DNA from: an uncultured Lachnospiraceae bacterium
Lineage (GTDB): Bacteria; Bacillota; Clostridia; Lachnospirales; Lachnospiraceae
Direction of reading: 5' to 3'
NCBI GenBank assembly: GCA_946557105.1
Contig: CAMNSZ010000011.1
Span: 17,468-81,467 of the forward strand
Length of the DNA stretch: 64,000 bases
The position numbers and the translations under genes are program-made. Below are positions 13,225-19,553 of the stretch, piece after piece. The notes beneath the pieces were generated by a model that saw only the letters and a list, made by a program, of their open reading frames with translations, did no database searches and had not been told where the DNA came from. Position 1 is the first letter of the stretch, and every line of letters begins with the position of its first letter.

Positions 13225-13253
13225 AGCTTTGGTATGCGGAACATACCAAAGCT
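13225..13253. repeat. Perfect 12-bp inverted repeat between pta and ackA
   Basis: AGCTTTGGTATG-CGGAA-CATACCAAAGCT, with no T tract on either side. Confidence 0.85.
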
Positions 13254-13311
13254 TAAAATGGCAGGTTTGCAAGAATTTATATACAAAAATGTGAGAAAGG
13301 TCGAAGGAAAT

Positions 13312-14517
13312 ATGAACACTTTAGTTATTAATTGCGGCAGCTCTTCTTTAAAATTTCAGTTGATTAATTCCGAGTCGGAGCAGTGTATTGCAAAGGGGCT
13401 CTGTGAGAGAATCGGAATTGACGGCAGTATGATAACATATTCTCCGGCAGGAGGAGAAAAGGAGCAGACCGTCACGCCAATGGAAGACCATACCGAAGCG
13501 ATAAGGTTGGTTTTAGAGGCGCTTACAAACGCAAAGACAGGCGTGGTAAGGAGTCTTGAGGAAATAGGCGCTGTGGGGCACCGTATCGTACATGGAGGCG
13601 AAAAATTTGCAGATTCCACGGTTATCAATGACGAGGTGATTGCCGCGATTGAGGAATGCAACGAGCTTGCGCCCTTGCATAATCCTGCAAATTTAATTGG
13701 CATAAACGCTTGCAGGAAGCTTATGCCCAATACCCCTATGGTTGCGGTTTTCGATACCGCGTTCCATCAGACTATGCCACAGGAGGCATATCTATATGGT
13801 TTGCCTTATGAATATTATAAGAAATATAAGCTTAGAAGATATGGATTTCACGGAACCAGCCATTCTTATGTATCTAAGAGAGCGGCAGAGGTTTTGGGGA
13901 AGAAGTATGAGGATTTAAAGATTATCGTGTGCCATTTAGGCAACGGAGCCAGCGTTTCCGCAGTGAAGAACGGTCGGTGCGTGGACACCTCCATGGGGCT
14001 TACTCCCTTAGAAGGACTTATTATGGGAACCAGATGCGGCGATATTGACCCTGCGATTATAGAATTTCTTGCACACAAGGAAAAGAAAGATATTGATGAT
14101 ATTATGAGTATCCTCAATAAGAAATCGGGCGTCCTTGGACTATCCGATAATTTGTCTTCGGATTTCCGTGATTTGGAGAGCGGTTATTTTGCGGGAGACG
14201 AGAATGCAATCCGTACTATGAAAACCTTCTGTTATCGTGTGGCAAAATATATCGGCGCATATATTGCCGCAATGAACGGAGTGGATGTCATCTGTTTTAC
14301 CGCTGGAGTGGGGGAGAACGGTCCCTTGGTCCGTTCCATGGTGTGCGAGCATCTGGGTTATATGGATATAAGGCTTGAAGAGGAGGCGAATCAGAAGAGA
14401 GGAGAGGATATTGTTATCACCACTCCCGACAGCAGAACAAAGGTGATGGTTATTCCTACCAATGAGGAGCTTGCTATAGCAAGAGAAACGGTGCGATTGA
14501 TTGGAAAGGGCGTCTAA
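13312..14517 (+). CDS. ackA: Acetate kinase
   Basis: VINCGSSSLK, GHRIVHGG, APLHNP, FDTAFHQT, YGFHGTSH, HLGNGAS, FTAGVGEN, PTNEE; start moved to ATG 13312. Confidence 0.98.
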   Translation: MNTLVINCGSSSLKFQLINSESEQCIAKGLCERIGIDGSMITYSPAGGEKEQTVTPMEDHTEAIRLVLEALTNAKTGVVRSLEEIGAVGHRIVHGGEKFADSTVINDEVIAAIEECNELAPLHNPANLIGINACRKLMPNTPMVAVFDTAFHQTMPQEAYLYGLPYEYYKKYKLRRYGFHGTSHSYVSKRAAEVLGKKYEDLKIIVCHLGNGASVSAVKNGRCVDTSMGLTPLEGLIMGTRCGDIDPAIIEFLAHKEKKDIDDIMSILNKKSGVLGLSDNLSSDFRDLESGYFAGDENAIRTMKTFCYRVAKYIGAYIAAMNGVDVICFTAGVGENGPLVRSMVCEHLGYMDIRLEEEANQKRGEDIVITTPDSRTKVMVIPTNEELAIARETVRLIGKGV

Positions 14518-14567: not shown

Positions 14568-14658
14568 GTAATTAACACGTCCTTCATGATCTATGCAGGG
14601 CAGACCGGCGCGGGTGCTGTTCAAGAGAATATGGTTTGACCGACGAAAGGATAAAAGT

Positions 14659-16557
14659 ATGCATATACAGATACAATGTTGCGGTATTGTTTTAATGCTG
14701 GCGCTGTTTTATTTTTATATGCGTCAGAAAAGGTTGTCCCTATATACCCAAAGGGCATTTCTGGGTGTTTTTTGGGCGACCTTTTTCTGTATTCTACTTG
14801 ACATGTTGTCCATTGGCGCAATTAATTACAGGCATGTGCTGTCTGAAGCTTTTGCAAAGCTGGTGGCAAAGAGCTATCTTGTAACGCTGCTTTTAGTGGC
14901 AATGAGCGCAATGTCCTACATGTGTGTGGATATTTATAAAAGGCGGGATATTTACCGGCAGGAAATGACAAAGTATTGGGTGTTAACCGCTGCCGGCATA
15001 ATTGGAATTTATGCGGCCCCTCTCTATTATCAATATGCGGGCGATGGAAGAACCGTAAGGTATACATACGGCCCCAGTGTCTATATTACTTACGGCATGG
15101 CATTGATTTTTTTTGTCAGGATTTTTTATTTGTTGAAGAAAGAGAAGGCAAATATTAATCCCCGCCGCAGGGAGGCCGTATGTATCTGGCTTTTGGTCTG
15201 GATTGCCGCTTCACAAATACAATTTATGTATACGGATTTGTTGATTGTGGGCTATGCCGGTTCCATAGGAATTATGGTGCTTTATTTGAAGCTGGAAAAT
15301 CCCGAGACAAATTTGGACAGGAGCACAGGGCTGTTTAACGGCGGCACATTGTATCAGTTTACGCAAGAGCTTTATGCCGGTGATAAGGATTTTTCCCTGT
15401 TGGTGATTATCTTTGAAAATACTGCCTATCAGAATGTACATCTGGAAAAGCGCGGACTGATAAAGATGGAAATTATAGAGTATCTGTTGAAAATACCGGA
15501 TGCTCTCTCCTTTAAAAACGCGGAGGACGAATATTTTATACTGTTTACCGACTGTGCAATAGCTGAAGAGCGGGTAAAGGAAATTCGTATGCGCTTTCAG
15601 TCTGAGTGGGGGGAGGATATGGCAAGCACGGTTCATCCCGGATGGCTGTATCTGCCTCATGCAAATGTTGTGGACAACGCCGATAATCTGTTGTATCTTA
15701 TCCGCTATGTGAGGCAGGATGGAACGGCGTTTATGGAAAACGATTTTGCATGTATCGAGCAGGATAGCGTAACCAAAATGTACCAGAAAAAGGAAACGGA
15801 GCAGCTGATTATTGAAGCCATGGAGAACGATCGTATAGAGGTGTACTATCAGCCCATTTTCTCTACGGATGAAAAGCGCGTAACATCTGCGGAGGCTTTG
15901 ATGCGCATACGGAATCTGGAGGGGAAGGTGGTGCCTCCCGGCGTATTCATTGACATTGCGGAGGAAAGCGGCATGATTTTGAAGCTAGGCGAAATCGTAT
16001 TTGAAAAGGTCTGCCGCTTTATCAGCAAACATCCGCCAGAGCAGTACGGATTACATTACATAGAAATCAATTTATCCGTTGTTCAATGTGCATATGCGAA
16101 TTTGGCAAAGGATTTTATTCATATCATGGAAAAATACGGTGTGTCGCCCAAGTACATTAATCTTGAAATAACGGAGTCGGCTTCTACAAATGCAAAAAAA
16201 ACGCTATTGGGAAATATGGAAGATTTGTTGGATTATGGTGTGAAATTTTCTTTGGATGATTTCGGAACAGGGCAGTCCAATCTGAATTACATAGTGGAAA
16301 TGCCGGTGAATATTGTGAAATTTGACAAGAGTATGACAAATTCTTATTTTAAAAACGGAAAAGCGAAGCATGTTATGGAAGCGGCGATTCATATGATACA
16401 TGGAATGAATTTGGAAATCGTATCGGAAGGAATCGAGACGAAAGAGCAATACCAGACAATGGAGGATTTGGGAATCAGCCATATACAGGGTTATTATTTT
16501 TCCAAGCCCCTTCCCGAGGAGGAATTTATACAATTTCTTGAGAAGAGCATTGAATAG
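14659..16557 (+). CDS. Membrane-anchored EAL-domain c-di-GMP phosphodiesterase with a degenerate GGDEF domain
   Basis: About 7 hydrophobic N-terminal helices; DRSTGLFN GGDEF-domain start with the A-site replaced by AEDEY; EAL domain with YQPIF, EALMR, INLS, LEITES, DDFGTG, KFDKS and EGIE. Confidence 0.9.
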   Translation: MHIQIQCCGIVLMLALFYFYMRQKRLSLYTQRAFLGVFWATFFCILLDMLSIGAINYRHVLSEAFAKLVAKSYLVTLLLVAMSAMSYMCVDIYKRRDIYRQEMTKYWVLTAAGIIGIYAAPLYYQYAGDGRTVRYTYGPSVYITYGMALIFFVRIFYLLKKEKANINPRRREAVCIWLLVWIAASQIQFMYTDLLIVGYAGSIGIMVLYLKLENPETNLDRSTGLFNGGTLYQFTQELYAGDKDFSLLVIIFENTAYQNVHLEKRGLIKMEIIEYLLKIPDALSFKNAEDEYFILFTDCAIAEERVKEIRMRFQSEWGEDMASTVHPGWLYLPHANVVDNADNLLYLIRYVRQDGTAFMENDFACIEQDSVTKMYQKKETEQLIIEAMENDRIEVYYQPIFSTDEKRVTSAEALMRIRNLEGKVVPPGVFIDIAEESGMILKLGEIVFEKVCRFISKHPPEQYGLHYIEINLSVVQCAYANLAKDFIHIMEKYGVSPKYINLEITESASTNAKKTLLGNMEDLLDYGVKFSLDDFGTGQSNLNYIVEMPVNIVKFDKSMTNSYFKNGKAKHVMEAAIHMIHGMNLEIVSEGIETKEQYQTMEDLGISHIQGYYFSKPLPEEEFIQFLEKSIE

Positions 16558-16569
16558 CGCAAAAAACTC

Positions 16570-16598
16570 TTGACAAAAGTTCTTTATCGCGGTAACAT
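16570..16598 (+). promoter_or_regulatory. Sigma-A-type promoter of the T-box/trpBA unit
   Basis: TTGACA, 17 bp, TAACAT. Confidence 0.75.
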
Positions 16599-16609
16599 TG
16601 TAAAAAATA

Positions 16610-16907
16610 AATAGCGGAACACAAACCGTAGATGTGGAGATCAAGGCAGTATATGCGCTTACAGAGAGACCGGATGCTGAGAAAGGTCGGAGAAGCAGGC
16701 TGCTAAATGGACCACGGAGGGCGCAGTGAAAGAAGCTTTTGAAGGAGGGCTTTTAGTATTTTGCGACGTTAGGCATACGTTAATTGCCGGGGATATGTCG
16801 GTATCCTGAAAGTGCACGGATGATTCCGTGAAGCAAGGTGGCACCGCGGGAATTGTTTAAGAAGACCCGTCCTTGACAGTAATATCTTTACTGTCAGGGA
16901 CTTTTTT
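16610..16907 (+). ncRNA. T-box riboswitch, tryptophan specifier (UGG)
   Basis: Stem I AGAGA/GCTGAG motifs, specifier TGG at 16708-16710, T-box AAGGTGGCACCGCG at 16835-16848, complementary CCCGTCC, and a 14-bp terminator GTCCTTGACAGTAA/TTACTGTCAGGGAC plus T6 at 16869-16907. Confidence 0.93.
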
Positions 16908-16981
16908 GATTGTATAGACAATCAGTAGCAATGAAAGGTATATCACTCAGTAAAATAAAAAGATTAAGAAAGGGTTGTGTT

Positions 16982-18166
16982 ATGAGCAAGGGACGTTACG
17001 GAATACACGGCGGGCAGTATGTTTCAGAGGCGCTGATGAACGAGATTCAGCGTCTGGAGGAGTGTTATGAATATTATAAGAAGGACGAAGGGTTTCAGGC
17101 AGAGCTTACAGAGCTTTTGAATAATTATGCGGGCAGACCTTCCCTTTTGTATTATGCGGAAAAAATGACAAAGGACTTGGGTGGAGCAAAAATATATCTC
17201 AAGCGAGAAGATTTAAACCATACAGGCTCTCACAAAATTAATAACGTGCTGGGTCAGGTGCTTATGGCAAAGAAGATGGGAAAGACCAGAGTGATTGCAG
17301 AGACAGGAGCCGGGCAGCACGGTGTTGCCACGGCTACGGCAGCGGCCTTGCTGGGTATGGAATGTGAGATTTTTATGGGCAGGGAGGATACCGAAAGACA
17401 GGCGCTGAATGTATACCGCATGGAGCTTTTAGGAGCCAAGGTCCATTCTGTCACAAGCGGAACCCAGACTCTGAAGGATGCGGTAAACGAGACAATGAGA
17501 GAATGGACGAACCGCATGGCAGACACTCATTATGTGCTGGGCTCGGTCATGGGTCCCCATCCGTTTCCCATGATTGTGCGGGATTTCCAAAGCGTTATCA
17601 GCAGGGAAGCGAGGGAACAGATTTTGAAGGCGGAGGGCAGGCTTCCGGCGGCAGTAGTCGCCTGTGTGGGAGGCGGCAGTAATGCCATGGGAGCATTCTA
17701 CCATTTTATAGAGGATAAGGAGGTAGAGCTGATTGGCTGCGAGGCGGCGGGAAAGGGTGTGGATACCGCTTGCCATGCGGCAACCGTCACTAAAGGAAGT
17801 CTTGGTATTTTCCACGGAATGAAATCCTATTTCTGTCAGGATGAGTACGGACAGATTGCTCCGGTTTATTCAATTTCCGCGGGGCTGGATTATCCCGGGG
17901 TCGGCCCCGAGCATGCCAATCTTCACGATACGGGAAGAGCAAAATATGTGCCCATAACCGATGAAGAGGCAGTGTCTGCGTTTGAATATATTGCAAAGAC
18001 GGAAGGGATTATCTGCGCTATTGAAAGCGCTCACGCCATTGCACAGGTGAGGAAGATTGCGGCTGATTACAGTCCTGACCAAAATATTATTGTCTGTGTG
18101 TCCGGCAGAGGAGACAAGGATGTTGCGGCAATAGCAAGGTACAGGGGGGTGGACATTCATGATTAA
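16982..18166 (+). CDS. trpB: Tryptophan synthase beta subunit (intact)
   Basis: [15 protein letters not shown] (PLP lysine), [32 protein letters not shown]; start moved to ATG 16982. Confidence 0.98.
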
Positions 18167-18929
18167 CGAAAATAATAAAATTAAAAGAGCGTTTCACATG
18201 CCAAACGCAAAGGCGCTTATCGTATTTTTGACAGCGGGCGACCCGGATGCGGACAGCTGCGTGAAATTTATTCCGGAAATGGAAAGGGCGGGAGCCGATC
18301 TGATAGAAATCGGGATACCGTTTTCCGATCCGATAGCGGAGGACGAGATTGTGCAGGCCGCCAATATCAGGGCGATTAAGAGAGGTATGACAACGGACGG
18401 GGTGTTTGATATAGTGAAGAGAGTGAGAGAGCGTTCGCAGATTCCGCTTTGCTTAAAGAGCTATTTAAATCCTGTGTTCCACTACGGTTACGAAAGATTT
18501 TTTGAGAAATGCGGGGAGCTTTCTGTGGATGGGATAATCATTCCCGATTTGCCCTATGAGGAAAAGGCTGAGGTGGAGGAGCCGGCTAACAGGCATAACG
18601 TAGCGTTGATTCCTATGCTTGCGCCTGCCTCCGAGGAACGTATCGAGAGAATTGCAAAGAATACGGACGGATATATTTATGTGACAGGCTCTAAGGAGGC
18701 TGTGCCTTCTCTTGTGGAGAGCATCCGAAGAGTGACGGCTGCGCCCTGTGCTATAGGTGTCGGAATAGCTGCTCCAAAGCAGGTAGAGCATATGGCTTCC
18801 TTTTCCGAGGGCTGCATTGTGGAGAGCGCCGCCGTTAAGATTATTGAAGAATACGGAAAAGAGGCTGCGCCCCGACTTTATGAGTTTGTGAAGAACATGA
18901 AGGAAGCGGTCTTTGCAATAAATTTATAA
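18159..18929 (+). CDS. trpA: Tryptophan synthase alpha subunit with a degenerate active site
   Basis: [19 protein letters not shown] and DGIIIPDLP are retained; ADGP is replaced by AEDE, loop 6 is shortened (GYIYVTG) and VGSA is replaced by VESA. Confidence 0.92.
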
Positions 18930-18937
18930 AACAATTG

Positions 18938-18966
18938 TTGACAAACTCTTCCCCTGTATGTATAAT
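18938..18966 (+). promoter_or_regulatory. Consensus sigma-A promoter for yceD-rpmF
   Basis: TTGACA, 17 bp, TATAAT. Confidence 0.85.
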
Positions 18967-19028: not shown

Positions 19029-19553
19029 ATGTTACTGAATTTATCCGATGTATTTACATCCGAGGACAGGGTTGAGAGCAAGAGCGTAACTCTTGAGATG
19101 ACCAGCTTTGACAGCAGGCTCGGAAGCTTTCCCATTATTGAGAAAGGCCCGGTAGAGTTTATTTTTACCAATATCGGAGCCCATAAAGTAAGGATTGAGG
19201 GAAGTGTGGAGCTTAAGGCTGCTGCAGCATGTGACAGATGTCTGACGAAGACGCCGGTTAGGATGGAGCTGCAATTTGACAGGACGGTTGTTTCACCTGA
19301 GGTTACCACGGAGGATGAGGATGCCGACGACATGAATTTTATGGAGGGGTATCAGCTGAATGTAGAGACTTTTGTGTATAATGAAATTTTAGTAAACTGG
19401 CCTGTGAAGATTCTGTGTAAGGAAGACTGTAAGGGCGTATGTCCTGTCTGCGGACAGAATCTCAATATAAGGGAATGCGGCTGCGATACCTTTGTGCCGG
19501 ACCCGCGTATGGCAGTAATAAAAGATATCTTTTTGCGCAATAAGGAGGTGTAA
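19029..19553 (+). CDS. yceD: YceD/DUF177 family protein (large-subunit rRNA accumulation factor)
   Basis: CDRCL and LCKEDCKGVCPVCGQNLN...DPR; located immediately before rpmF. Confidence 0.9.
   Translation: MLLNLSDVFTSEDRVESKSVTLEMTSFDSRLGSFPIIEKGPVEFIFTNIGAHKVRIEGSVELKAAAACDRCLTKTPVRMELQFDRTVVSPEVTTEDEDADDMNFMEGYQLNVETFVYNEILVNWPVKILCKEDCKGVCPVCGQNLNIRECGCDTFVPDPRMAVIKDIFLRNKEV

Follow-up and report, generated by a model that had tools for sequence, protein, structure and literature searches.

A Trp T-box-controlled trpBA locus with a degenerate alpha subunit in a mouse-gut Acetatifactor, a candidate indole-salvage tryptophan synthase

Results

The window analysed here is a 64,000-nucleotide stretch of contig CAMNSZ010000011.1, from an uncultured Lachnospiraceae bacterium of the genus Acetatifactor. 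On its forward strand lies a T-box leader directly 5′ of trpB, which overlaps the following trpA by 8 nt, as it also does in relatives with a full tryptophan operon (Table 1). A preliminary description, made from the letters of the sequence, had proposed that a Trp T-box drives these two genes only, and this is confirmed. The leader has a Stem I with AGAGA and the specifier loop, the specifier UGG (16708–16710) followed by A, AAGGUGGCACCGCGGG and the 14-bp terminator, with the T-box sequence at 16835–16850. At 78.6 bits it does not reach the RF00230 gathering score of 93 and is therefore missed by a default Rfam gathering scan, which returned no T-box here; it was found with a scan in E-value mode. 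The Trp T-boxes of related loci score 74–90 bits, every one of them below the gathering score. The same genome has a single further UGG T-box, which precedes a TrpXYZ-like tryptophan importer of the ABC type (compare PMC9382623).

Table 1. Features of the trpBA locus, in positions of the window
Feature	Position	Strand	Evidence
Sigma-70-type promoter of the trp leader, TTGACA-17-TAACAT	16570..16598	+	Conserved in L024 and L027, 5′ of trpE (leader alignment)
Trp-specific T-box leader	16620..16877	+	RF00230, full model, 78.6 bits, E 2.5e-17
Intrinsic terminator of the T-box	16869..16907 (hairpin 16869–16901, then T-run)	+	14-bp stem and T-run
Deletion junction	16913..16950	+	Left, old trpE leader homology; right, old trpF-trpB spacer with the trpB ribosome-binding site (local alignments to L024, L027, L057)
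trpB, tryptophan synthase beta chain, 394 aa, intact	16982..18166 (ATG at 16982)	+	TIGR00263, 636 bits (cut-off 392)
trpA, tryptophan synthase alpha chain homologue, 256 aa, open frame, degenerate IGP site	18159..18929	+	PF00290, 234 bits; TIGR00262, 222 bits (above cut-offs)
Loop-2 lesion, D62-E63 in PIAEDEIVQ (residues 58–66): Salmonella G61→D, position 62 V/P→E	18342..18347	+	Alignment
Loop-6 deletion site, GYIYVTG (residues 171–177)	18684..18698	+	Alignments, AF2 model
β7 motif GVGIA instead of GFGIS: F212→V (V201), S215→A (A204)	18759..18770	+	Alignment
Phosphate-binding β8 loop, E222 in VESA: Salmonella G234→E	18822..18824	+	Alignment

No trpE, G, D, C or F had been seen beside trpBA, and this absence extends to the whole genome, which is 92% complete. 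The genome-wide search that had been proposed for these genes and for a second trpA returned none: trpE, trpGD, trpC and trpF are absent, tblastn with TrpD, TrpC, TrpF and TrpE of the same genus gave no hit, there is no indole-3-glycerol-phosphate synthase (IGPS), and there is one PF00290 match only. Tryptophanase was likewise not found in this genome, where the best PF01212 match scores 37 bits. In syntenic relatives (L024–L028) the gene order is pta-ackA-leader-trpE-GD-C-F-B-A-yceD-rpmF-plsX-acpP-rnc-smc, and alignment shows the leader of the window to be orthologous to their pre-trpE leader. The two leaders are 88% identical, whereas about 60% of synonymous sites differ. Because these relatives carry ackA, the same leader, trpE-GD-C-F-B-A and yceD in this order, the window has lost about 4.6 kb (trpE, trpGD, trpC and trpF) in place, and the old trpE leader is now fused to trpB. 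Since the deletion is visible in situ, genome incompleteness was rejected as the cause of the absent trp genes. The locus is collinear, with zero indels, in contigs of four independent mouse-gut metagenomes, so it is not an assembly artefact, and the trpBA allele is stable across mouse-gut metagenomes of several studies. A search for RNA sequencing runs yielded no recognisable RNA library.

TrpB is 93.7% identical to its full-operon orthologues. It keeps its PLP motifs, as originally described, with the PLP-lysine motif HTGSHKINN present, and it departs from near-invariant columns (those at least 97% invariant in 55 full-operon TrpBs) at two positions out of 243, T17A and I307V. The dN/dS of trpB lies between 0.02 and 0.05 (0.022–0.046). 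A long end branch in the TrpB tree was considered as a sign of acceleration and rejected, given a dN/dS of 0.025 against 0.019 and a window sequence that is a deeper-branching member.

TrpA has changed far more than TrpB, at 25 of its 96 near-invariant columns against 2 of 243 (p = 3e-13). The changes are concentrated in the C-terminal half, with 19 of 45 columns affected compared with 6 of 51 in the N-terminal half (p = 0.001); the earlier reading of a gene free of stops and frameshifts, with a preserved N-terminal half, stands. The nearest TrpA relatives, at 70–72% identity, keep the GVTG, GFGIS and GS motifs. Identities to the same-genus proteins of G008 and G013 (41–48% for TrpA, 78% for TrpB) overstate the acceleration of TrpA, since syntenic relatives are much closer, at 72% and 94%.

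When TrpA is aligned with its counterparts in Salmonella and close Lachnospiraceae, the losses of loop 6, G61, F212 and G234 prove to be derived. In loop 2 the preliminary description had counted Asp60→Glu, Gly61→Asp and Pro62→Glu as lesions, and here it has to be narrowed. Salmonella position 60 (E61 in the window) is Glu in 54 of 54 intact full-operon relatives, and position 62 is Val or Pro among them; as Glu60 is the clade norm and position 62 varies, a residue other than Pro being normal there, G61D is the only derived lesion of this motif, and position 60 is uninformative on the loss of a catalytic acid. Glu49 is retained, as E50, just as had been stated. The loss of loop 6 at GYIYVTG is derived and amounts to 9–10 absent residues, including GVTG (G181–G184, with T183); in the structural model the β6→α6 link has only about 6 residues. 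Gly234→Glu, which turns VGSA into VESA, is also present and derived. To these the alignment adds two derived lesions that had not been listed, F212V (V201) and S215A (A204), and the closely related sister L023 carries F212→A. In the phosphate and indole cradle as a whole, F212V, S215A and G234E are changed, and G211, G213 and S235 are kept. The AF2 model of TrpA is a full (β/α)8 barrel with 8 strands and a pLDDT of 93.5, a confidence propped up by an alignment of mostly intact relatives, and matches solved TrpA structures with TM of 0.88–0.91. Glu49 and Glu60 are both still in TrpA, and residual or altered alpha chemistry is possible.

Comparison of trpA with its 95%-identical sister (L023) gave 16 synonymous and 13 non-synonymous changes, a dN/dS of 0.22 (p = 1e-4 against neutrality), which is about two- to threefold higher than the baseline of 0.073 for intact trpA. 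As this value is significantly below 1 and roughly three times the baseline, TrpA is under relaxed yet purifying selection and is not undergoing pseudogenisation; the neutral decay that the preliminary description had named as its refutation is not seen. In a second degenerate lineage (G006/G283), whose members share their lesions, pS is 0.76, which is saturated, and dN is 0.09 (p = 1e-45).

The trpBA-only state with a degenerate TrpA has, judged from the TrpB tree, at least seven independent origins in gut Lachnospiraceae. In each lineage the TrpA lesions fall at residues that are altered in Chlamydia trachomatis TrpA, and IGPS is absent from all seven. The T-box 5′ of trpB is kept in all degenerate lineages except L109; there the contig is short, and the little upstream sequence that it offers yielded no T-box. 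Two genomes carry further changes, E49V in G045, by which Glu49 is lost, and Y175H in L108. Across the family, TrpA is entirely missing from 98 of 401 genomes, G017 shows the scar of a fresh deletion but has an intact TrpA, and in G272 and G165 the whole operon, including trpB and trpA, is in fragments. Judging by these fragmented operons, the trpBA-only state can be a stage passed through before the locus is lost completely. Low TrpA scores in G055, G103, G130, G202 and G221 were not accepted as degeneration, being contig-end artefacts, and the very divergent PF00290-like open reading frames of G245, G324, G352, G370 and G371 lie outside the TrpA analysis.

Discussion

The sequence evidence makes it likely that trpBA of this Acetatifactor is an indole-salvage tryptophan synthase with a non-catalytic alpha subunit, TrpA being kept as a partner of TrpB. 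The preliminary description had offered the same interpretation, and all the computational tests that it proposed were favourable to it; what did not survive is its use of the supposed Asp60 and Pro62 lesions. The mouse-gut Acetatifactor would be a tryptophan auxotroph with a two-arm starvation response that senses tRNA-Trp. When uncharged tRNA-Trp builds up, one UGG T-box would antiterminate into the genes of the TrpXYZ-like ABC importer, at another locus of the genome, and the T-box of the window into trpB-trpA. TrpB, a PLP enzyme, would then join L-serine with exogenous indole, presumably made by tryptophanase-positive gut neighbours, to give tryptophan. We infer that TrpA can neither bind nor cleave indole-3-glycerol phosphate (IGP), with the phosphate cradle altered by G234E and S215A, the indole-stacking residue F212 and G61 replaced, and the closing loop 6 lost together with T183 and G184. 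Folded but non-catalytic, it would bind TrpB via loop 2 and the N-terminal half, which is conserved, and may stabilise or allosterically activate the beta reaction by analogy with C. trachomatis TrpA. Loop 6 normally relays alpha-to-beta activation, and with its deletion TrpA may here be a scaffold only and no allosteric activator.

One alternative is that trpBA became functionless when trpE–F were deleted, that TrpA is simply further decayed than TrpB, and that both are to be lost. Loss of the trp pathway is indeed common in the family, as the genomes without TrpA and the fragmented operons of G272 and G165 show, and G017, with its fresh scar and intact TrpA, suggests a temporal series. We nevertheless judge such a relic improbable. 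The dN/dS of trpA in the degenerate pair speaks against it, as does that of G006/G283, which is far below 1 despite saturated synonymous sites; trpB is strongly constrained, with 241 of 243 invariant columns retained, the leader is conserved well beyond synonymous sites, the four independent metagenomes have no indels, and the 8-nt trpB/trpA overlap is retained. TrpB enzymes are promiscuous β-replacement catalysts, and on this general ground the locus might serve β-replacement with another nucleophile, or serine deamination, instead of tryptophan supply. This we regard as very improbable, however, since the UGG T-box gates expression by uncharged tRNA-Trp, the sole other UGG T-box of the genome controls the importer, and the TrpB columns that are kept are those invariant in bona fide Trp-pathway orthologues.

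We also give little credence to a neofunctionalised alpha subunit that would release indole, in a retro-aldol-type reaction, from a non-phosphorylated or other indole adduct of the gut and tunnel it to TrpB. Such chemistry would fit the retention of Glu49, Glu60 and Tyr175 in the window, the purifying selection on TrpA and the clustering of changes in the phosphate-binding part of the pocket. Independent lineages, however, reshape the pocket differently and share no new motif, Glu49 and Tyr175 are themselves replaced in G045 and L108, TrpA of the window lacks the lid (loop 6, T183) by which Asp/Glu60 is positioned, and the matching pattern in Chlamydia is that of an inactive site (PMC8376405).

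Indole salvage via TrpBA is already known from Chlamydia. The likeness to TrpBA of genital C. trachomatis, drawn in the preliminary description, is precise. In the trpRBA operon of the genital strains (PDB 6V82; Michalska et al. 2021, PMC8376405), as in the window, nothing else of the trp pathway remains, TrpB is conserved, and TrpA keeps acidic residues at its catalytic positions (in the window Glu49 and the clade-typical, uninformative Glu60) and has its lesions in the GVTG loop 6, G211–G213 and G234/S235 regions. The chlamydial TrpA, altered at GVTG, G211, F212, G213, G234 and S235, is inactive yet raises TrpB activity 4-fold (PMC8376405), and it is under relaxed but purifying selection (PMC8376405; PMC6635532); in both systems the relaxation affects TrpA only. 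Chlamydia salvages indole in an indole-producing community, and a like function is what we propose for the window. The two differ in regulation, by a Trp T-box here and by the TrpR and YtgR repressors in Chlamydia, and in host relations, a free-living gut commensal as against an obligate intracellular pathogen. In the window loop 6 has been physically deleted, in Chlamydia substituted, and the replacements are mostly acidic (D/E) here, whereas those of Chlamydia are R, R, D and K. Unlike in Chlamydia, the event is recent enough for the full-operon ancestral state to survive in syntenic relatives.

With the canonical T-box trpEGDCFBA operon (L024 and L027; Waltera, Eisenbergiella) the window shares the ackA/yceD-rpmF position, the promoter, the T-box, the terminator and the 8-nt overlap, and the TrpBs are 94% identical; it differs in having no trpE, trpGD, trpC or trpF and in a TrpA that is 72% identical and has lost IGP-site residues. 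Yanofsky's missense mutants of Escherichia coli trpA reportedly include Gly211→Glu/Arg, Gly234→Asp/Cys, Thr183→Ile and Ser235→Leu, and the mutant alpha proteins are said to have lost the IGP reaction and still to combine with and activate β2 in the reaction of indole with serine. The gut lineages are changed at the same residues (G211E/D, G234E/D, T183), but with many fixed and maintained natural lesions where each mutant has a single laboratory lesion. An 'A1' variant with TrpA and TrpB only has been counted in 14 of 2856 human gut genomes, with a predicted need for tryptophan or an indole precursor (Ashniev et al. 2022, PMC9026213); gene presence was all that the survey scored, and those of its passages that were searched do not mention alpha degeneracy, convergence or retained selection. 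In plants, a TSB-like pseudoenzyme activates TSA for indole production (PMC12727527). As proposed for TrpA of the window, one subunit is there the non-catalytic allosteric partner of the other, in mirror image, since the dead protein is beta-like and the alpha subunit works; the plant system is also eukaryotic and has a different purpose.

A more speculative idea, which we consider rather unlikely, is that the degenerate alpha subunits have been convergently reshaped as 'self-liganded' activators of TrpB. A carboxylate stands in or beside the phosphate cradle in all seven lineages (G61D, G184D, G211E/D, G213E, G234E/D or A236E), and acidic residues make up 11 of the 18 substitutions at six cradle glycines (p = 0.014 against a generous mutational expectation of one-third). 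In the empty phosphate site, acidic side chains could satisfy the backbone NH groups and lock alpha in a ligand-bound-like state, which would keep TrpB on without IGP or G3P; of the chlamydial structure, the authors write that G213D 'partly mimics the phosphate group' (PMC8376405). Mutational bias, through GGN→GAN transitions, may account for part of the convergent Gly→Asp/Glu changes, and we treat the pattern as a lead only.

Indole ranks with the most abundant signalling metabolites that gut microbes produce, and bacteria that turn it into tryptophan shape cross-feeding and the indole pool seen by the host. Salvage by TrpB with a pseudo-TrpA is, on this prediction from sequence, not a chlamydial oddity, having evolved repeatedly and been stably maintained in gut Lachnospiraceae, and the putative salvage locus is wired to a tRNA-Trp-sensing riboswitch alongside a tryptophan importer. 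The seven lineages, together with G017 (just after the deletion) and G272 and G165 (total decay), form a natural replicate series, which separates the parts of alpha required for catalysis only from those that support TrpB and should be useful for the engineering of stand-alone TrpB. For annotation, pipelines label the degenerate genes "tryptophan synthase subunit alpha", so that the last step of the pathway may be scored as complete, and the T-boxes of such loci, given their scores, would be missed.

A further observation concerns Thr17 of TrpB, which is Thr in 56 of 56 rows without a degenerate TrpA and is replaced in five of the seven degenerate lineages, an association for which an independent-pairs sign test, with only 4 strongly supported pairs, is underpowered. 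We take this residue to be Salmonella β-20, in the N-terminal segment adjoining the alpha subunit, and its replacement may point to a re-tuned interface or to a tunnel mouth adapted to the entry of external indole.

Features of the trpBA locus and of related sites. Coordinates are those of the window unless a contig or locus is named; identity is that between the window and syntenic relatives carrying the full operon.
Feature	Coordinates	Strand	Identity	Remarks
ackA	13234-14517		92%	
EAL-domain gene	14593-16557	+		PF00563
Promoter	16570-16598	+		TTGACA-17-TAACAT
T-box leader	16620-16877	+		Rfam model match
T-box specifier	16708-16710			UGG, followed by A
trpB	16982-18166	+	94%	TIGR00263, 636 bits
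TrpB residue 17	17030-17032			
trpA	18159-18929	+	72%	TIGR00262, 222 bits; PF00290, 234 bits
Promoter	18938-18966	+		TTGACA-17-TATAAT, perfect consensus
yceD	19029-19553		85%	
plsX			94%	
rnc			93%	
Second UGG-specifier T-box	G000:C23:13087-13385	minus		window's own genome
ABC importer genes	L126 2277-5386			
trpGD and trpF remnants	G017:C7 5733-6138			L021
Fragmented operon	G272:C1 ~423-425 kb			L049
Fragmented operon	G165:C66			L050
Intact-looking trpA	G197:C18 17115-17822			L056
494-aa lyase-like frame	G006:C149:20638-21756			

Results

The trpB and trpA genes of the window overlap by 8 nt, and their genome (2.74 Mb in 26 contigs, 92% complete) has no match to IGPS (PF00218) and a single PF00290 match, the window's own trpA. 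Searches by tblastn with queries from same-genus genomes found no TrpD, TrpC, TrpF or TrpE, so that the preliminary statement that trpE/G/D/C/F are missing, made from the window, is confirmed by profile search and tblastn across the 92%-complete genome, which also has no second trpA. There was also no credible tryptophanase in this genome (top Beta_elim_lyase match, 37 bits).

In the nearest long-contig TrpA relatives (P0005, P0007) the locus is perfectly syntenic and reads pta-ackA-leader-trpE-trpGD-trpC-trpF-trpB-trpA-yceD-rpmF-...-plsX-acpP-rnc-smc. The pre-trpE leader of these relatives is 88% identical to the stretch of the window that holds the promoter, T-box and terminator (alignment A1), against a difference of about 60% at synonymous sites in the flanking genes. 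The window matches this leader up to ~16912, and from ~16951 it matches the relatives' trpF-trpB spacer, including the trpB ribosome-binding site. Since the left side is thus the trpE leader and the right side the trpF-trpB spacer, a single deletion of ~4.6 kb took out trpE, trpGD, trpC and trpF, joining trpB to the Trp-sensing leader. In two intact relatives (L024, L027) the leader lies directly 3' of ackA and the EAL-domain gene, which encodes a membrane protein of 654 aa with the EAL domain at its C terminus, is absent between them, reflecting either its gain in the window lineage or its loss in these two. A consensus promoter starts 9 nt past the trpA stop, ahead of yceD-rpmF, and the stretch separating it from trpA showed no intrinsic terminator.

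The T-box leader aligns to the entire Rfam model (78.6 bits, E 2.5e-17), with the T-box sequence AAGGUGGCACCGCGGG, a 14-bp terminator and a T-run 3' of the specifier, but its score is below the gathering score of 93 and it therefore goes unreported by a default scan. The same holds for 5 of the 11 T-boxes of this genome, and related Trp T-boxes (window, L018, L020, L021, L047, L048, L108, L110) all score 74-90 bits; standard annotation would miss the Trp T-boxes of these Lachnospiraceae. Judged by specifier positions, only 2 of the 11 are Trp-specific. The second precedes three genes for an ABC importer (PF04392 binding protein, PF02653 permease, ATPase) with the same architecture as TrpXYZ of Streptococcus suis, a T-box-regulated tryptophan uptake system (PMC9382623). 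Judging by the specifiers, the importer and trpBA would be the entire Trp T-box regulon of a predicted auxotroph.

We then compared columns at least 97% invariant among 54-55 intact operons with trpC upstream. TrpB is changed at 2 of 243 such columns (T17A, I307V) and TrpA at 25 of 96 (Fisher p = 3e-13), with 19 of 45 changed in its C-terminal half versus 6 of 51 in the N-terminal half (p = 0.001). The changes map to the C-terminal ends of beta2, beta3, beta6/loop 6, beta7 and beta8, which form the IGP pocket. D56-P57 (loop 2), N104, F107 and P132, presumably beta-subunit contacts as in the Salmonella enzyme, are unaltered. An AlphaFold2 model, whose confidence owes to an alignment made up mostly of intact relatives, has all eight strands (pLDDT 93.5, pTM 0.92), a beta6-alpha6 link of only ~6 residues, and superposes on solved TrpA structures with TM 0.88-0.91.

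The derived lesions (Salmonella numbering) are G61D with Glu at position 62, loss of 9-10 loop 6 residues including the GVTG motif (G181, T183, G184), F212V (Ala in the sister copy), S215A and G234E. Alignment with intact relatives thus bears out the loop 6 loss and Gly234 to Glu change noted earlier. Of the three substitutions originally read in PIAEDEIVQ, G61D stands; Asp60 to Glu is the clade norm (54/54 intact members), and loss of Pro62 was likewise rejected as a lesion, intact members having Val or Pro.

The only close sister, L023, is a 1756-nt metagenome contig with a 95% identical protein and the same lesions. The two trpA genes differ by 16 synonymous and 13 non-synonymous changes (dN/dS 0.22; binomial test against neutrality, p = 1e-4), versus a baseline of 0.073 for intact trpA (L024 vs L027), indicating that constraint on trpA is relaxed about three-fold yet clearly purifying; trpB gives 0.019-0.046 throughout. 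The neutral decay considered in the preliminary description is not borne out. G006 and G283, from different GTDB genera, have one common lesion pattern (G61T, GVTG to NAAD, G211E, F212I, S215N, G234E, S235N); their trpA genes have pS 0.76 (saturated) and dN of only 0.09 (p = 1e-45), and their TrpB proteins are 97% identical. The window's trpBA locus recurs nearly unchanged in mouse-gut metagenomes of several independent studies, and contigs of four independent ones are collinear with zero indels in trpB or trpA.

Of 401 Lachnospiraceae genomes, sampled at one per genus, 303 gave a match to TrpA, for the most part of 260-321 bits. IGPS is absent in 13 of 18 genomes with low-scoring TrpA and present in 20 of 22 with high-scoring TrpA (Fisher p = 5.5e-5); the remaining 5 of the 18 come from fragmented assemblies, and in at least G103 and G202 the TrpA match is truncated where the contig stops. 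Seven lineages combine a full-length trpB with a trpA that is degenerate yet open (11-31 changed columns): the window, G006/G283, G012, G045, L108, L109 and L110. The TrpB tree requires seven origins of this state, nesting the window among intact L057, L024 and L027 (99% SH-aLRT) and likewise nesting L108 (98%). Loop-6 GVTG, F212 and S215 are each changed in six of the seven, G211 and G234/S235 in five, and G61 in three. IGPS is absent from the genomes behind L108-L110 and present in two controls. A T-box stands directly 5' of trpB in all stand-alone pairs but L109, on whose short contig none was detected.

Other genomes suggest stages of the same process. G017 retains remnants of trpGD (aa 199-245) and trpF (aa 162-194) between its T-box and an intact trpBA, with TrpA changed at 2 of 96 columns, and appears to be a fresh deletion scar, the earliest stage. 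In G272 and G165 the entire operon, trpB included, is fragmented into pieces of trpE, trpGD, frameshifted or truncated trpB, and trpA (lacking the loop-6 region in G272); in both, loss of the pathway has reached its final stage. G197 (98% complete) does not fit the pattern: its trpA looks intact and is among the top-scoring ones (314 bits), with no IGPS in the genome and no trpB within 6 kb of trpA. Five IGPS-less genomes (L051-L055; G245, G324, G352, G370, G371) hold very divergent PF00290-like ORFs of 60-103 bits, of which some are open and two carry a single in-frame stop; that of G371 adjoins a gene distantly similar to TrpB (34% identity). The ORFs may represent a TrpA-like family that is older and has diverged far.

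Discussion

What we observed of the gene content, the history of the locus, the state of its residues, selection and regulation supports the original reading of trpBA as an indole-salvage synthase; that indole is used, that alpha activity is lost and that TrpA activates TrpB we infer. Most simply, the organism would be a Trp auxotroph with a two-arm starvation response, in which the T-box-controlled importer would take up tryptophan and TrpB would make it from scavenged indole, with TrpA, by analogy, as a non-catalytic partner. That trpBA is instead a relic in transit to loss is suggested by the fragmented operons of G272 and G165, evidence that the state is sometimes transient, but the tests for selection, the conservation of the leader and the stability of the locus across populations make this improbable. 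We give equally little weight to a re-purposed alpha site: the window retains Glu49, Glu60 and Tyr175, but no new pocket motif is common to the lineages, and Glu49 is lost in G045 and Tyr175 in L108. A non-Trp role for TrpB is unlikely because of the tRNA-Trp gate.

For the indole-salvage reading there is precedent. Classical E. coli trpA missense proteins (G211, G234, T183) lose the IGP reaction and keep beta2 activation. Chlamydia trachomatis TrpA (GVTG to ATRD, G211R, F212R, G213D, G234K, S235T) is inactive on IGP and increases the activity of TrpB four-fold, with a partial relaxation of purifying selection in TrpA only (PMC8376405), and chlamydial TrpB requires full-length TrpA (PMC6635532). 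By this analogy the window would hold the chlamydial solution again, in free-living gut commensals. Unlike in Chlamydia, control is by a riboswitch rather than a repressor, loop 6 is physically deleted, and close relatives still show the ancestral full operon. Among human gut genomes, a survey lists 14 with TrpAB only, the passages searched making no mention of alpha-site decay (PMC9026213), and our searches of the literature yielded no description of degenerate TrpA other than that of Chlamydia. New beyond the chlamydial precedent are the sevenfold convergence and the staged series.

Chlamydial G213D is reported to mimic the substrate phosphate in part (PMC8376405). In our lineages, 11 of the 18 substitutions at six phosphate-cradle/loop glycines introduce an acidic residue. 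That the alpha subunit is self-liganded and activates TrpB constitutively, through an interface that has adapted with it, stays speculative, given mutational bias (GGN to GAN) and low statistical power. TrpB Thr17 (Salmonella beta-20 by alignment offset) is Thr in 56/56 rows without degenerate TrpA and replaced in 5 of the 7 degenerate lineages (A, S, M, I, A; the window, G006/G283, G012, L108 and L109), which may reflect interface or tunnel co-adaptation. TrpB I307V and A350S recur as well. G006, which has a degenerate-TrpA trpBA, also encodes a 494-aa protein (Beta_elim_lyase, 158 bits) that may be a tryptophanase or a tyrosine phenol-lyase; if the former, this organism could both produce and use indole.
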